A stretch of 64,000 bases of DNA from an uncultured Calditrichaceae bacterium (GCA_964624795.1 CAZUZS010000001.1:57260-121259), one strand, 5' to 3'; counted from the stretch's first letter, positions 2,903 through 10,454 are shown. Notes: a model not told the origin generated them from the sequence alone. Numbers and translations: made by a program.

Positions 2903-3574
2903 TCAGTCTTTGATCCCTATTTCTTTGAATTGACGAAACTTATCTATATCGGTCGCTTTCATGGCAGCCTGCATTTGCTCCATGTTAACACCAAAGCCCT
3001 CAATTTCAATATGAAAACGCTTTTCAACCAGGAGCTGTATCTTACCGCTTTGTGTCTGTGTATTATATTCTTCGTAGGCCTTATAGCCTTCATAAAGGCA
3101 CGTTTTCTCATAGCCAGTATCCGATTCCCGGTTGAAATCTCCCATCATCCATGCCAGGTTCGCAAATGTGGAGAACCCATGCATCTTGCCCATATCAGTG
3201 ATAGTGATGATAATATAGCTCCCATCAGGTGTTCGATACCCCGCCTCTGCCCGCGAAACCTCCATCCCAAAAGCGGATGAGATCTCTGCCACAGCATCCT
3301 CACGCTTCATACTATTGATTTCCAGGGGCAAGAGATCTTTCAATTCATTAAAATCGACAACATCATTTGCAGTGGCATTATTTTCCGGCCCCTGCTGGTC
3401 GGAGAAAGCCGGCTGCTGCCCGTGGAGATTGGTATCTTCTCTTGCTGTAAGTCCCGGACTGGTGTCCTTTGTAATTATTTTGCCCTCGCCAAGCCTCCCT
3501 GTATTCTCGTTTTTGCTGCAACCCAGGGACAAAATAAGAGTCCCCAAAAGAATGATTTCCCAACGCCTTTTCAT
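2903..3574 (-). CDS. Hypothetical lipoprotein
   Basis: Signal peptide plus lipobox 'LILSLGCSKN'. No recognisable family. Confidence 0.45.
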   Translation of the reverse strand: MKRRWEIILLGTLILSLGCSKNENTGRLGEGKIITKDTSPGLTAREDTNLHGQQPAFSDQQGPENNATANDVVDFNELKDLLPLEINSMKREDAVAEISSAFGMEVSRAEAGYRTPDGSYIIITITDMGKMHGFSTFANLAWMMGDFNRESDTGYEKTCLYEGYKAYEEYNTQTQSGKIQLLVEKRFHIEIEGFGVNMEQMQAAMKATDIDKFRQFKEIGIKD

Positions 3575-3950: not shown

Positions 3951-5093
3951 CTACTGGTAGATCCTTGACACAAAAGGCCCCGCGAGAAAGGCATCAGGAT
4001 CAATCTGGCTCTGAAGAATGCATCCCCGGTAATTGCCGGTGAGAAGCAGCCGGGCGGATTCCACTAATCCTGCAGCGGTAGTAGCCTGAATTGCCCGCAT
4101 GCGTTTTCCGCCAATTTCCATTGGTTTGATGTGGTAGGATTTCTCGATAGTGCGTAATTTATTACCGGAGTCTTTGCCGATTACCGAGACATAAATGACT
4201 ACCAGGTCTTCTTCCACCGAGGGAATAAGTTTCTCCATTTTTTCCTGCAGCTTTTGGACACGGTCTTCGCCATGCCGAATTTCCCTTAATAACCCATCTA
4301 TCCAGCCATAGTGCCCGGGGTACCGCAGCGTTTTGTAGTCAAGGCTGCGGGTTTTTCCAGACAGGGCTACCGGCAGGTCGGCTGCGCCACCGGAAGTCAG
4401 ATCCTCCTCATACTGAATTCCGTCCAGCACAATTTGTGAGCGCTCGGTAAGAGATGCCTTGCTGGTCGTTTTAAAGTCGCGGATTACTTCAGCCGGTTTT
4501 ACGTACAATGTAGCGACGCCCACCGGACTCCAGGTAAAACCATAGAAGTGAGGCGGATACGCGTTTTGGGTAAGCGCCCCGACTTTCATGTTGACAGATT
4601 CGACCTTCTCCTTACCAAAATCCCTGCAAAATTGCCGGTAAAGTCCATTTGCCAGAACATCTACAAAGCCGGGCGCAAGACCGGTTTGCAAAATAAAACC
4701 CTTTTGGGCATCGCCGGCGATTTCCAAGACCTGATTCGTTTCGTAGACATACTCGGTAAGGTTCGCGTAGTGGAGGTCATGCTGTATAGCCAGCTTTGCA
4801 ATCCGTGGCGCCTGGCTGCCCGGCAGGCAGTCCAAAACGATATCCGCCTTATTTAGAATTTCACTCAATTGTTCGTTTGTTCCGCTACGGGGCATAACGA
4901 AATGTTCCACGGTTCCTTTTTGAACGGAATCCCGCCGGATCCAGCTTACTGCCTCTTTAGCCGCTTCCTCGATGGCATCGCCCAGGTAAAGATCGACTTC
5001 AAAATCACCGACTTCTCTTAGTAGCAGCCCAGCCGCGCGACCAATACCACCGGTGCCGGCGATCGCAACTGTGTATTTCTTTTTTGACACCAC
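3951..5093 (-). CDS. Saccharopine dehydrogenase-like NAD(P)-binding oxidoreductase
   Basis: N-terminal Rossmann motif 'VAIAGTGGIGRAAG'; overall saccharopine/homospermidine-dehydrogenase-like organisation. Confidence 0.55.
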   Translation of the reverse strand: MVSKKKYTVAIAGTGGIGRAAGLLLREVGDFEVDLYLGDAIEEAAKEAVSWIRRDSVQKGTVEHFVMPRSGTNEQLSEILNKADIVLDCLPGSQAPRIAKLAIQHDLHYANLTEYVYETNQVLEIAGDAQKGFILQTGLAPGFVDVLANGLYRQFCRDFGKEKVESVNMKVGALTQNAYPPHFYGFTWSPVGVATLYVKPAEVIRDFKTTSKASLTERSQIVLDGIQYEEDLTSGGAADLPVALSGKTRSLDYKTLRYPGHYGWIDGLLREIRHGEDRVQKLQEKMEKLIPSVEEDLVVIYVSVIGKDSGNKLRTIEKSYHIKPMEIGGKRMRAIQATTAAGLVESARLLLTGNYRGCILQSQIDPDAFLAGPFVSRIYQ

Positions 5094-5212: not shown

Positions 5213-6850
5213 CTATTTTTCTCCAAGCGGTTCCCACAGTCCATATGATTCGATTTTTATCTGCACCTGCGGATCGGTTTTATAGGTTTCGTAGGAATTA
5301 TAGTACCATCCCATATATTGGGAATCTCCGCCACCCTGGGTAGTAATCAGAAAACGATTGGAAAGGTGCCCGATGTTCATCGCGCGGTCGCGCGGCAGGG
5401 GTTTGTCGCCGCCTTGCGGGTCAATGGGAATCCAGCCGTAGTTCGGGAGATAAACTTCCGGCCAGCGATGAAAAACATCATCCATGCTGGCGTCATCTCC
5501 CCGTACCACAATACTGCCTACATAGCGGGCCGGCAGGCCGGCTGCCCGGCACAGTGCAATAAAACTAAAGGTATATTCCGAACAGGATCCGGTCCCTCGT
5601 TTCAAAACTACAGGCGCTACGTTCCAGCCGCCCTCCAGTTTGTATTCCAGTTTATCTCTTACATAATCAAAGATCTTGCGGGCAACCCAGTAAGGATTTT
5701 GTTCATCCCCGACAATCTTCTTTGCTAAATCCTGAATGTACGGATCGTCGATCTGGTATTTGCTGCCGTTGGCAGTAAACGTCTTCTGTATGTCACCGGG
5801 CATATCAGCAAGCGTACCGCATTTATCGGGAAAAATAAAATATTTGATCTCGGAGATTTTCGCATCTACTACCATTCGTGATGTGATTGCAGCTTCGCTT
5901 TGGATACCCGCAGAATGGAAATGTGCAAATTGCTGCCCCCAGCGGTCTTTTACGGTGGTAAAATTCTCCGGAATGAATTTCTTCGATAGGATTTCCTGCT
6001 GATTTAAATTTTCAGGAATGGAGATGTAAACATCCAGGTCCTTCAACCGGCCGGACCCGTAAATTTGGGTTTCGTGGGTAAAGGTAATCCGCGCGGTCCG
6101 GGTATTATCCAATTTGAACAAATCATTATCGCTGCGAACCAGTTGGTAAATCTCACCTTTTTCAAAATCCACATTCCAGATGGTTTTGCCATCCCAGGCC
6201 AATCCGCGGGGATAAGGACCCGGCGAGTCGAGCACCAGGATAACCTCCCCGTTGCCGGGATCGATCATATAGATCTCATTCATGATGCGGTCCGAGCACC
6301 ACAAATACCGGCCATCCCAGGTAAGCCCCTGTGCATATTTGGCAGGCGCCGAAAATGTTTGGATTGCAGTTCCATCGCTCAAATCGATTTTCATGATCTC
6401 ATTTGCGCGATAATCGCTGACCCACAGCGTCTTCCCATCCCAAGTCAATCCCTCTGCATTGGAGCTCGGCGAGTCTATCACTCTTAGAATCGTTCCGTCC
6501 GCCGGATCAACCTGGAAGATCTTGTTCTGCCTGCCGTCAATATTCCAGAGATATTTCCCGTCCCAGGCTAAACCCATCGGCCAGAATCCGGGGGACGGTA
6601 TTTCCCGGACTACTTTTCCGGTCGCCGGATTCACACAGGAGATCTTATCAGCCTGGTAATCGGCGGTCCACAGGTTACGCCCATCAAATGTCAGCCCGGT
6701 TGAAAAATGATAGGGTGTCTGGATACTGCGAATTATTTTGCCTGGATAGGCAAAAACCACAGTTGATATTCCCAGAACGAGAAAGAAAATCAGTTTCTGA
6801 ATTTTAAGCATGACAGCTCTCCTTCTAACAAATGTGTTACTCAAATCCAA
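5213..6850 (-). CDS. Secreted glutaminyl-cyclase-like beta-propeller repeat protein fused to a C-terminal transglutaminase-like cysteine-protease domain
   Basis: Signal peptide, then at least six repeats of 'GL(T/A)WDG+xLW..D.....I..ID...G'. The C-terminus 'GTGSCSEYTFSFIALCRAAGLPARYV...' is a transglutaminase-core motif with a catalytic Cys. Confidence 0.6.
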   Translation of the reverse strand: MDLSNTFVRRRAVMLKIQKLIFFLVLGISTVVFAYPGKIIRSIQTPYHFSTGLTFDGRNLWTADYQADKISCVNPATGKVVREIPSPGFWPMGLAWDGKYLWNIDGRQNKIFQVDPADGTILRVIDSPSSNAEGLTWDGKTLWVSDYRANEIMKIDLSDGTAIQTFSAPAKYAQGLTWDGRYLWCSDRIMNEIYMIDPGNGEVILVLDSPGPYPRGLAWDGKTIWNVDFEKGEIYQLVRSDNDLFKLDNTRTARITFTHETQIYGSGRLKDLDVYISIPENLNQQEILSKKFIPENFTTVKDRWGQQFAHFHSAGIQSEAAITSRMVVDAKISEIKYFIFPDKCGTLADMPGDIQKTFTANGSKYQIDDPYIQDLAKKIVGDEQNPYWVARKIFDYVRDKLEYKLEGGWNVAPVVLKRGTGSCSEYTFSFIALCRAAGLPARYVGSIVVRGDDASMDDVFHRWPEVYLPNYGWIPIDPQGGDKPLPRDRAMNIGHLSNRFLITTQGGGDSQYMGWYYNSYETYKTDPQVQIKIESYGLWEPLGEK

Positions 6851-7186: not shown

Positions 7187-7930
7187 TTAATCTTCTTCTT
7201 TCCCCATATTTGCTTCGTCCATAAGGCGAAGCGCTTCCAATAAAATGTTCATAGTTGAACCATTGATGTTTGGCGTAATCTTGGCTTCCAACGGTTCAAA
7301 TTTGAACAAGCCATCACTTAAAGCCACCAACCTGTTGATTGCCTCGACTCCCTCCTCTTTGCCCGCGGTCGCAAAAATAATATTGCCTTGTTTGAATACA
7401 ATTTTGCCCGTAACGATCGAGGTAATTTCCAGCGTTCCGTTGCGTTTATTCTGATTCAGCAACTGGATAACTTCCGCAAGACTGAGATCCGCCAGGTTGC
7501 CTTCGAAGCCTTTTACCTGAGCGGTCGTTTCGCTGTCCATTGCCCTCACCCGTTTGGCCCGGTTTAATAGCGTTTCCACCTTGGCGAGCAGCACGTTGCG
7601 GTCCACCGGTTTTACCAGGTACTCATCGGCGCCGGCACGAAAGCCCCGTATTTCCATGTCACGATCTTCAAGGCTGGTGAGAAAAATGAAAGGCACCATA
7701 GGCGTGGCAGAGTTTTCCCGTATCATCCAGCAGAATTCAATACCGTCGGTCTGGGGCATCATCACATCCGAGATAATGAGATCCGGCTGGATTTTATTAA
7801 CCACCTCCAGACCTTCATCCCCGTTCTCGGCGGAATGAATCTCGTAGCCGGCCTTTTCGAGGCTGATCCGCAGCAGTTTCAGAACATGCGGATTATCGTC
7901 TACAATCACTATTATGTCTTTATCAGCCAT
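7187..7930 (-). CDS. Response regulator: receiver domain plus DUF4388 domain
   Basis: 'IVIVDDNPHVLKLL...DLIISDVMMP' is a receiver with a phospho-acceptor Asp. The C-terminal 'GNLADLSLAEVIQLLNQNKRNGTLEI...IVFKQGNIIFA' is DUF4388-like. Confidence 0.7.
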   Translation of the reverse strand: MADKDIIVIVDDNPHVLKLLRISLEKAGYEIHSAENGDEGLEVVNKIQPDLIISDVMMPQTDGIEFCWMIRENSATPMVPFIFLTSLEDRDMEIRGFRAGADEYLVKPVDRNVLLAKVETLLNRAKRVRAMDSETTAQVKGFEGNLADLSLAEVIQLLNQNKRNGTLEITSIVTGKIVFKQGNIIFATAGKEEGVEAINRLVALSDGLFKFEPLEAKITPNINGSTMNILLEALRLMDEANMGKEED

Positions 7931-7954: not shown

Positions 7955-9409
7955 CTATTCTTTGCCCTCGTAGCACACATTCAGCTCTTTGTTAGCCTTT
8001 AATTCATCTACCCGGCGAACAGGCGTATGAAATGGCGCATGGTGCATTTGCTCCGGATCGGCTTTTGCCTGTTCCACTACTTTTTCGAAAATATCCGCAA
8101 ATTGATCCAGTGCGTCCCTGCTTTCCGATTCAGTAGGCTCTATCATCAGCGCTTCCTTTACAATCAGGGGAAAATAAACGGTGGGTGCATGAACACCATA
8201 ATCCAGCAATCCCTTGGCAATGTCCATCGCTTTCACACCGTGTGACCGGGCCAGCGATTCGGCGCTCAGCACGAATTCATGCATCGGCCGAGTTTCATAT
8301 TTCAGCTCCAGTACTTTTCGCAGGCGACTGAGCAGATAATTCGCGTTAATGATGGCATTTTTGCTGATCTCTTTCATGCCAGCCTGGCCGTGCATCCGGA
8401 TATAAACATAGGCACGCAACAAGGCCGCAAAATTTCCATAAAAGGTAATCATTCTGCCTATCGAATGCGGGATGTCGCTGTTCAGGAAATAACTTCCACC
8501 CTTAACATCAACTATCGGAACCGGGAGAAAATCTTTCAACCGCTCGCTTACTGCCACCGGCCCGGCGCCCGGTCCACCGCCGCCATGCGGAACGGCAAAG
8601 GTCTTATGCAGATTAATATGCAGAACGTCAAATCCCAAATCACCGGAGCGAACAATCCCCAACAGGGCATTGAGATTCGCCCCATCCATATAGAGAAGGC
8701 CTCCCGCATCGTGGACAAGTTTTTCTATTTCAACGATGCCGCCCTCAAAGATCCCTAAAGTGCTGGGATTGGTCAGCATGATACCGGCAACCTCATCATC
8801 CAGCTTCGACTTCAGATCATCGATATCCACCATGCCGTCTTCGCGGCTTTTCACCTGAACGGAATGCATTCCGGCAATCGCGACCGAAGCCGGGTTGGTT
8901 CCGTGCGCGGAATCCGGCACCAGCATTTTGGTGCGGTTTTCCCCACGCACAAGATGGTATTTGCGAATCATCATACAACCGGTCAGCTCACCATGAGCAC
9001 CGGCAGCCGGCTGGAGGGTGATGGCAGCCATGCCGGTAATTTCTTTCAGCATTTCCTGTAATTCGAACATGATTTGCAGTGCCCCCTGGACGGTTTGCAG
9101 GGGCTGCATCGGGTGCAGTGAGCTGAAACCGGGGAGCGCCGTCACATCCTCATTAATCTTGGGATTGTATTTCATTGTGCAGGAACCGAGAGGATAGAAA
9201 CCCTTATCGACATTGTGATTCAGCGTTGAAATATTAACAAAATGCCTGACGACTTCATTTTCGCCGACCTCCGGAATATCGGGAGAATTTTTTCGCAACA
9301 TCTCACCCGGAATCAACTTCGAGACTGGTTGTTCGGGTACATCCAGATTTGGCAGGTAATTCTTTTTAATTTTTTCACGATCTAATTCGAATATTAGCTT
9401 TTTATACAT
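7955..9409 (-). CDS. gcvPB: Glycine dehydrogenase (decarboxylating) subunit 2
   Basis: 'YPLGSCTMKYNPKINE' and the PLP-fold region; start taken as 'MYKKLIFELDRE'. The listed ORF extends 26 codons upstream and would overlap the adjacent response-regulator gene. Confidence 0.9.
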   Translation of the reverse strand: MYKKLIFELDREKIKKNYLPNLDVPEQPVSKLIPGEMLRKNSPDIPEVGENEVVRHFVNISTLNHNVDKGFYPLGSCTMKYNPKINEDVTALPGFSSLHPMQPLQTVQGALQIMFELQEMLKEITGMAAITLQPAAGAHGELTGCMMIRKYHLVRGENRTKMLVPDSAHGTNPASVAIAGMHSVQVKSREDGMVDIDDLKSKLDDEVAGIMLTNPSTLGIFEGGIVEIEKLVHDAGGLLYMDGANLNALLGIVRSGDLGFDVLHINLHKTFAVPHGGGGPGAGPVAVSERLKDFLPVPIVDVKGGSYFLNSDIPHSIGRMITFYGNFAALLRAYVYIRMHGQAGMKEISKNAIINANYLLSRLRKVLELKYETRPMHEFVLSAESLARSHGVKAMDIAKGLLDYGVHAPTVYFPLIVKEALMIEPTESESRDALDQFADIFEKVVEQAKADPEQMHHAPFHTPVRRVDELKANKELNVCYEGKE

Positions 9410-9419
9410 CCTATCACCT

Positions 9420-10454
9420 TTATGCGTTATCATTGTCGATTCTGGAGTAGCGAACCGTCTGGTTTCGTCCGTTGGATTTTGCGACATTCAACGCCTTTTC
9501 GGCTAATTGAATGGTCTCTGCGGGGGTGCTCACCTGTTCGAAATCGACCTTCACCAGGCCGGCACTAATGGTAATATGCTGATAATTTTGCTTTCGCTTG
9601 GGCGATAATTTTTTGAGCTCATAAAAATCCTGGTCAAAAAAACCGGCCTGATCAACCGCCGCACGAATTCGTTCCGCTTCGTAATAGGCGCCATTTTCAT
9701 CGGTATGCGGCAAAACAACGATAAAACGGTTGCCTGCGGACCGGAAGACAATATCCGTATGCCGGGTGTTGTTGAGTATCACGTTGGCTATGCGCATCAG
9801 GATATAATCGCCGGTCTGCTCGCCAAAAACATCATTTATTTTATGAAAAAGGTCAACATCCAGAGCCACAAGGGAAAGATCGCTGTGGTAGCGATGGGAA
9901 CGGGAAAGCTCTTCTTCCAGTCGTTTTTGGAGAAATGCCTTATTGTAGAGGCCGGTTAACAGATCGGTAATCTGGCCGGCTTCCAACTCGGTGGCCTTTT
10001 TCCGCAACATTTCGAGTTCCTTAAACGCGTGGCTGTGCTCTTCCACCAACTGCTGATTATCTGCCCGCAGGCGCTCGATGAGGTCTTTTTTGTGTAGAAG
10101 CGATTTGACCCGCGCGATCAGTTCTTTTGCGTTGAACGGCTTAAGAATATAATCGTCCGCGCCCAGTTCCAGGCCCAATACCCGGTGCTCATCCTCAACA
10201 TAGTTGGCAGACAGAAAAATGACTGGAATGTCTTTGGTGGTATCTTTTTCCTTCAGAATTTTGCAGGCATCGAAACCGCTAAGCACCGGCATGAGCGCGT
10301 CGAGGATTATAATATCCGGTTTCTCTTTTTCGGCTGCTTCGATGCCTTCCTTCCCATTGGCTGCCTTCGCAACATCGAATTCATAAAAATGAAACAGATG
10401 TTCCAGAGTATCGAGCATGTCTTCGTTATCGTCGACGATCAGAACTTTTGCCAT
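9420..10454 (-). CDS. Response regulator with receiver domain and a degenerate GGDEF domain (GG[DE]EF replaced by AGNRF)
   Basis: 'KVLIVDDNEDML...DIIILDALMP' is a receiver. The GGDEF fold 'LTGLYNKAFL...' carries 'RSAGNRFIVVL' where 'RYGGEEF' is expected. Confidence 0.75.
   Translation of the reverse strand: MAKVLIVDDNEDMLDTLEHLFHFYEFDVAKAANGKEGIEAAEKEKPDIIILDALMPVLSGFDACKILKEKDTTKDIPVIFLSANYVEDEHRVLGLELGADDYILKPFNAKELIARVKSLLHKKDLIERLRADNQQLVEEHSHAFKELEMLRKKATELEAGQITDLLTGLYNKAFLQKRLEEELSRSHRYHSDLSLVALDVDLFHKINDVFGEQTGDYILMRIANVILNNTRHTDIVFRSAGNRFIVVLPHTDENGAYYEAERIRAAVDQAGFFDQDFYELKKLSPKRKQNYQHITISAGLVKVDFEQVSTPAETIQLAEKALNVAKSNGRNQTVRYSRIDNDNA

Follow-up and report, generated by a model that had tools for sequence, protein, structure and literature searches.

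A widespread transglutaminase-fold protein, predicted to be exported, with a five-bladed propeller that keeps the glutaminyl cyclase fold without its catalytic residues

In a 64,000-nucleotide stretch of DNA from an uncultured Calditrichaceae bacterium (GCA_964624795.1, CAZUZS010000001.1:57260-121259; hereafter, the window), a single open reading frame (ORF) on the minus strand takes up the whole of 5213..6850 and encodes a beta-propeller joined, through a beta-sandwich, to a transglutaminase-like domain. We read its product as a putatively Sec-exported enzyme of three domains, having one active site of the transglutaminase (TGase) fold and a propeller that serves recognition and is not a glutaminyl cyclase (QC), and we put the probability of this reading at about 0.6. 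An earlier model-generated annotation of the same DNA, hereafter the original prediction, had described a secreted fusion of a glutaminyl-cyclase-like propeller with a transglutaminase-like protease domain and had considered the pairing uncommon. Residue numbers below are those of database protein P0001 (numbering along the ORF is higher by 13), and coordinates are collected in Table 1.

The TGase half was recognized by Transglut_core (PF01841) with an E value of 5.5e-24 and 85-86 bits against a cutoff of 23, over positions 2-108 of the 108-position profile; the motif GSCSEYTFSFIALCRAAGLPAR sits inside this match, and the core has a papain-like alpha/beta fold. Two sets of homologs were compared throughout, a close one of 32 sequences (60-74% identity) and a broad one of 37 full-length relatives (26-47% identity). 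The TGase-core Cys motif on which the original prediction had rested proved to belong to an intact triad, Cys410/His448/Asp464, that was invariant in both sets. The 150 C-terminal residues first allotted to this module fall short of the unit as a whole, since sandwich and core together span about 300 residues, nearly all of PDB entry 3isr, and are equivalent to stand-alone proteins of the 3isr type. The sandwich itself (residues 233-330) matched no Pfam family. Among solved structures, the profile of the TGase half found only 3isr, the periplasmic domain of TgpA, and PNGase.

Conservation divides the two halves sharply in the broad set. There, the sole invariant residues were Y390, S409, C410, R429, H448, R449, G459, and D464, all in the TGase half, and the propeller had none; this distribution points to a single active site in the TGase half, with the propeller as an accessory. 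It bears equally on the idea that the protein is a nonenzymatic binding or adhesion protein that uses the TGase fold as a mere scaffold. Inactive proteins of this fold do exist (e.g., Rad4 and EPB42), and the propeller module is common among surface proteins, yet the triad and its neighbors S409 and R449 are among the only residues held invariant down to 26% identity, the pattern that marks a conserved active site, and we consider a pure scaffold extremely improbable.

In the mechanism that we propose, His448, oriented by Asp464, would activate the thiolate of Cys410 for attack on an amide carbonyl (in a peptide or isopeptide bond or in a side-chain carboxamide) of an extracytoplasmic protein or peptide, and a thioester acyl-enzyme would result. 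Water would then resolve this intermediate, making the protein a protease, isopeptidase, or deamidase (the favored outcome, at roughly even odds overall), or else an amine would do so, giving TGase cross-linking, to which we assign a clearly smaller share. A conserved acidic loop (residues 436-447) directly precedes His448. It varied little or not at all in the core family, retained Arg437 in 35/37 and Asp444 in 36/37 members of the broad family, was the only segment of the full-length model with a predicted local confidence (pLDDT) below 50, and may serve as a mobile lid or as a switch that binds metal. That the protein is a genuine TGase, cross-linking Gln to Lys in envelope or extracellular proteins while its propeller docks the substrate, is a tentative alternative. 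The triad is intact, the periplasmic domain of TgpA, one of just three sequence relatives with a solved structure, has TGase activity measured in vitro (PMC3507681), and the acidic loop could act as a Ca2+ switch like that of animal transglutaminases. However, no conserved partner or substrate gene lies nearby, many bacterial Transglut_core proteins are peptidases, and sequence does not separate transfer from hydrolysis.

The N-terminal half forms the propeller. The motif GLx[WF]DG was found five times at a spacing of exactly 41 residues, and mean identity between blades was 41%, against 5.8 +/- 1.3% in shuffled sequence, so the blade repeat that had been noticed is real. Its number, put at six or more, comes down to five, both by the 41-residue period and by the strands of the AlphaFold model, in which 20 strands make up five four-stranded blades and an N-terminal strand completes blade 5. 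Confidence was high across the model (full length, pLDDT 87 and predicted template-modeling score 0.85; propeller alone, pLDDT 94.9). At the DNA level the blades are only about 51% identical, which marks the duplication as old and ruled out a recent tandem duplication.

By sequence, the family of this propeller is ambiguous. Four Pfam families responded: DUF6923 (PF21959), the top match of the propeller clan (33.1-37.5 bits; cutoff, 27), whose best stretch of only about 65 residues names a repeat type and not a function; Vgb_lyase (30.7-34.1 bits, below its cutoff of 50); SGL (28.9-33.3 bits, marginally above 26.3); and, weakest of the four, Glu_cyclase_2 (PF05096; 26.9-31.0 bits; cutoff, 22.3), which aligned over profile positions 42-150 of 249 only. 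Of the two Pfam domains expected from the original prediction, Transglut_core was thus found strongly (85 bits), and Glu_cyclase_2 cleared its cutoff but was outdone by three other propeller families. The YVTN repeat TIGR02276 did not reach its cutoff (18.9 versus 27.85), and propeller matches in the NCBIfam scan were all subthreshold. Searched against PDB sequences, the propeller profile retrieved a bacterial WD40 protein, the designed proteins WRAP-T and Pizza, a YVTN propeller, and Vgb lyase, with no QC among the 60 best matches. These scores raise a further alternative, in which the propeller has lactonase or lyase activity, as SGL or Vgb proteins do, and the protein is a two-enzyme fusion unrelated to QC. 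The SGL match above cutoff favors it, as do the matches to Vgb_lyase and DUF6923 and the scoring of the module above the Vgb_lyase cutoff in multicopy relatives; nevertheless, those families are expected to have six blades (NHL, SGL) or seven (YVTN, Vgb lyase), where five are present here, and we give this alternative hardly any credence.

By structure, as modeled, the propeller is clearly of the QC type, QCs being its best fold match (Foldseek template-modeling score, 0.69-0.76). A profile-to-profile alignment (hhalign) with QCs spanned 184 columns at 92.8% probability (E = 4e-7); it paired blade 1 with blade 1 and took in the N-terminal strand, and the propeller is accordingly a genuine, if remote, homolog of type I QCs. 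The QC profile consisted of only four sequences, those of the papaya enzyme and three bacterial QCs; the papaya sequence used was identical to PDB 2faw/2iwa at 254 of 256 positions.

The QC catalytic site did not accompany the fold. In papaya QC this site comprises F22, Q24, F67, E69, W83, W110, N155, W169, and K225 (PMC9436314), with E69 as the proton shuttle and N155 and K225 as proposed oxyanion stabilizers (PMC5837995). Carried over through the hhalign columns, with residue counts taken from the 32 close homologs, F22 corresponds to F36 in a variable column (F in 13, H in 7, and C in 6, among others), Q24 to T38 (T in 29), F67 to W77 (W in 32), E69 to M79 (M in 26), W83 to a hypervariable column, W110 to E120 (E in 21, Q in 6, D in 3, and C in 2), N155 to Q161 (Q in 20, N in 4, and G in 3, among others), W169 to R175 (R in 32), and K225, mapped manually just past the hhalign block, to Y216/Q217. 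Rough retention is therefore limited to the two aromatic positions F22 and F67, the other seven being replaced or variable, and of five residues shared by all four solved QCs (W83, W110, N155, W169, and K225) none remains. As judged from these columns, the propeller keeps the QC fold without the QC catalytic residues. The description "glutaminyl-cyclase-like" thus holds for fold and remote homology but not for the site, nor was the repeat motif specific to QCs, as DUF6923, Vgb_lyase, and SGL scored about equally well or better. When the four QCs were compared with the whole window by tblastn, only weak matches to this same propeller appeared, which indicates that no genuine QC is encoded nearby.

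Glutaminyl cyclases and transglutaminases both act on the gamma-carboxamide of Gln. A bifunctional glutamine-modifying enzyme, its propeller an active QC or a related Gln-carboxamide enzyme working with the TGase domain, was implied by the original prediction; besides this shared target, it accords with the QC fold match, with the hhalign result in the same blade register, and with a Glu_cyclase_2 score just above cutoff. Some change in the site is evidently tolerated, since the Xanthomonas campestris enzyme, whose natural active-site variant has been discussed (PMC5837995), is active without Glu in the E69 column. Against this stand the replacement or variability of seven of the nine catalytic-site residues, E69, N155, and K225 included, the loss of the five residues otherwise invariant in solved QCs, the want of any invariant propeller residue in the broad family, and the sequence searches, in which three other propeller families outscored QC and no QC was among the 60 best PDB profile matches. 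We regard the bifunctional enzyme as very unlikely. As a separate observation on QCs themselves, X. campestris QC (3mbr) has Ala in the papaya Glu69 column, and Glu69 is accordingly not universal among solved type I QCs.

Several points weigh against a single active site served by an accessory propeller. Both halves were highly conserved among the 32 close homologs, and in the core subfamily mean column identity was nearly as high in the propeller (72%) as in the TGase half (77%). Axial residues of the propeller were likewise held in that subfamily (W77 and R175 invariant, T38 and R202 near-invariant), so that a propeller of this kind might bind a specific ligand or might even catalyze a non-QC reaction; in the broad set, W77, M79, and R202 drift, and R175 is kept in 27/37. 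The nearest protein of solved structure, 3isr, is uncharacterized in its own right, the gene neighborhood (below) offers no clue to function, and we found no experimental work on any family member in the literature. Finally, Pfam Transglut_core includes transamidases as well as several MEROPS peptidase families (PMC10318531), and for this reason hydrolase and transferase cannot be told apart from sequence. The axial residues could also be read more boldly: at the place of the QC active site, the core subfamily may have rebuilt a pocket from invariant W77 and R175 with near-invariant T38, R202, Y216, and Q217 that binds an anionic or Gln/Glu-derived group and feeds it to the TGase Cys. This we consider a long shot; if true, it would define a previously unrecognized extracellular enzyme that modifies glutamine in proteins or peptides or cleaves isopeptides, spread by gene transfer across many uncultured anaerobic phyla.

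With these points weighed, we still hold that the propeller most likely recognizes or positions the substrate and is not a second enzyme. It is a diverged homolog of type I QCs that has lost the catalytic residues and was added as a mobile module also present in many surface proteins. Giant surface proteins, as long as 5,914 amino acids, carry the module in 3-8 matched stretches each together with PKD, Big, CARDB, or CarboxypepD_reg domains, and small propeller-only and PKD-propeller proteins also occur, as do sandwich-plus-TGase proteins without a propeller; the fusion is thus modular. In a split-gene search on one TGase-only relative (P0218), no propeller gene adjoined. Four giant predicted surface proteins (P0145, P0149, P0195, and P0264) bear the 41-residue-blade module as 6-8 matched stretches; in the two of these that were scanned, CarboxypepD_reg, Big, PKD, or CARDB domains were present and the module matched Pfam Vgb_lyase above cutoff. 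Two other relatives differ at the C terminus: P0142, which has the full propeller-TGase architecture, ends in a type IX secretion C-terminal domain (a match to Pfam Por_Secre_tail), and P0263, with sandwich and TGase only, in a type-IX-secretion-like tail as judged by eye. Such a tail would place these relatives at the cell surface or lead to their release; the window protein lacks one.

As to the gene itself, translation probably starts at the ATG at 6811, codon 14 of the listed ORF, with the TTG at 6850 not used: GAAGGAG lies just upstream as a ribosome-binding site, homolog starts fall at the equivalent position, and the resulting 532-residue product is identical to P0001, to which no protein name was attached within its cluster. 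The 13 extra residues from the mechanical TTG start (6812..6850, minus strand) are probably not translated. The N terminus resembles a Sec signal peptide with putative cleavage after VFA; a hydrophobic core was present in 32/32 close homologs, and position -1 was Ala, Ser, or Gly in 31/32 and Thr in the remaining one. In these sequence features the call of a secreted protein was upheld. A lipoprotein reading was ruled out, there being no lipobox cysteine at the N terminus. Promoter and terminator scans returned sites no more numerous than in shuffled sequence.

The fusion had been thought uncommon, and this proved wrong. A word-indexed protein search returned 2,889 matches, of which the best 120 were near full length (about 490-590 residues), shared 61-74% identity with the query apart from the exact match P0001, and were labeled by their sources as Calditrichia, Ignavibacteria, Neomarinimicrobiota, Sedimentisphaerales, and Bacteroidales. 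An exhaustive search of 50%-identity representatives yielded 685 proteins at E <= 1e-30; of the 150 listed, many had the full architecture down to about 30% identity, and others were partial or multipropeller. Relatives were encoded in at least 362 GTDB species-representative genomes. The best 80 of these (51-75% identity) fell into at least eight phylum-level groups and were titled Calditrichota, Ignavibacteriota, KSB1, Zixibacteria, Bacteroidota, Phycisphaerae/Planctomycetota, Marinimicrobia, Fidelibacterota, and Caldisericaceae, the nearest being a Calditrichia metagenome-assembled genome (MAG) at 75%. All 80 were MAGs except for one single-cell genome, and none was titled a cultured isolate; among them, the family is apparently confined to uncultured lineages. 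Identity of 58-75% between Calditrichota, Bacteroidota, Planctomycetota, KSB1, Marinimicrobia, and other groups (loci L007-L086) is unusually high for a secreted protein, which points either to horizontal transfer between sediment bacteria or to very strong constraint.

Names already in use at JGI ([quoted passage not shown] and the same with "sugar lactone lactonase YvrE" in second place), together with these hundreds of genomes and of 50%-identity clusters, mean that the fusion is already annotated as a common family. The protein is an ordinary member of that widespread, automatically annotated, uncharacterized family, and nothing here would greatly surprise a specialist. Because the QC fold is kept and the QC catalytic residues are not, the labels "glutamine cyclotransferase" and "sugar lactone lactonase YvrE" probably misname the propeller and should not be trusted on the family. 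A single biochemical characterization would annotate hundreds of genomes, and the family shows cleanly how the fold of a catalytic propeller can be reused for a noncatalytic module. In the literature, we found no paper pairing "transglutaminase-like" with "glutamine cyclotransferase"; a search on TGase-like, propeller, and Ignavibacteria returned only an unrelated preprint on NLR defense, and one on YjiK nothing useful.

The gene looks like a stand-alone unit. The order gcvH, response-regulator diguanylate cyclase, response regulator with DUF4388, target, and saccharopine-dehydrogenase-like gene was common, at least in part, to about 10 loci, mostly Calditrichota-titled plus one KSB1-titled MAG, and three targeted look-ups along with a clustering of flanking ORFs from 81 loci revealed no neighbor conserved across phyla. 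In the window, a glycine-cleavage P-protein subunit lies between the two regulators, its ORF overlapping the upstream regulator gene by 68 nucleotides, which suggests that its true start is later. Two long antisense ORFs inside the target gene (5318..5728 and 6065..6487, plus strand) recur in many homologous loci and made up the largest clusters of the neighbor analysis, the biggest with 46/81 loci; as neighbor genes they were rejected as an artifact, since they look like a by-product of conserved coding sequence. Also nearby, at 2903..3574 (minus strand), is a 223-residue ORF with a lipoprotein-like N terminus (LSLGC) and no Pfam match.

Table 1. Features of the propeller-TGase gene and its neighbors, in window coordinates
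Feature	Residues	Position	Strand	Remarks
Gene	1-532	5213..6811	-	532 codons plus stop; start moved from TTG 6850 to ATG 6811
Predicted Sec-type signal peptide	1-21	6749..6811	-	MLKIQKLIFFLVLGISTVVFA, then YPGK; sequence features; two Lys in n-region plus hydrophobic core
Five-bladed beta-propeller	22-232	6116..6748	-	blade 5 closed by N-terminal strand
Repeat 1	38-78	6578..6700	-	TGLTFDG...SPGFWP; 41-residue period
Repeat 2	79-119	6455..6577	-	MGLAWDG...; Met79 in column of QC catalytic Glu69
Repeat 3	120-160	6332..6454	-	EGLTWDG...; 41-residue period
Repeat 4	161-201	6209..6331	-	QGLTWDG...SDR; Arg175 in column of QC Trp169
Repeat 5	202-232	6116..6208	-	RGLAWDG...; shortened; N-terminal strand completes blade
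Beta-sandwich linker domain (Ig-like)	233-330	5822..6115	-	all-beta model, pLDDT ~90; superposes with 3isr N-terminal domain
Transglutaminase-fold catalytic domain	331-532	5216..5821	-	Transglut_core match residues 361-465 (5417..5731)
Catalytic Cys410	410	5582..5584	-	in GSCSEY; invariant 32/32 and 37/37; aligns to TgpA and PNGase Cys; codon verified
Conserved acidic loop	436-447	5471..5506	-	VRGDDASMDDVF; directly precedes His448
Catalytic His448	448	5468..5470	-	in HRWPEVY; invariant; aligns to TgpA and PNGase His; codon verified
Catalytic Asp464	464	5420..5422	-	in IPIDP; invariant; aligns to TgpA and PNGase Asp; codon verified
Saccharopine-dehydrogenase-like gene		3951..5093	-	neighbor
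Response regulator with DUF4388		7187..7930	-	neighbor
Glycine-cleavage P-protein subunit		7955..9487	-	between the two regulators
Response-regulator diguanylate cyclase		9420..10454	-	upstream regulator

Among known systems, the closest to the sandwich and core is PDB 3isr, a "putative cysteine protease" of the COG1305 type from Cytophaga hutchinsonii, which is roughly equivalent to these two domains but has no propeller, shares about 18% identity, and has no assigned function. The periplasmic domain of TgpA from Pseudomonas aeruginosa (6g49) is likewise an extracytoplasmic Transglut_core, and its Cys, His, and Asp motifs align with those found here; unlike the window protein, TgpA is a polytopic inner-membrane protein with DUF3488 and no propeller, and the match is weak (E = 7.5e-4 over 69 residues). 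For the propeller, the type I QCs (papaya 2faw/2iwa, X. campestris 3mbr, Zymomonas mobilis 3nol, and Myxococcus xanthus 3nok) show 16-19% identity and the same five-bladed fold closed by an N-terminal strand, but they stand alone, whereas the blades here are short (41 residues) and nearly alike and the domain is fused. With the C-terminal domain of Escherichia coli YjiK (3qqz), which also has no assigned function, no Pfam-level sequence match was seen. The best matches at the level of sequence are the NHL, YWTD, YVTN, and Vgb-lyase propellers, the designed Pizza included, which have a similar motif (GL..DG..LW..D) and a similar blade length.
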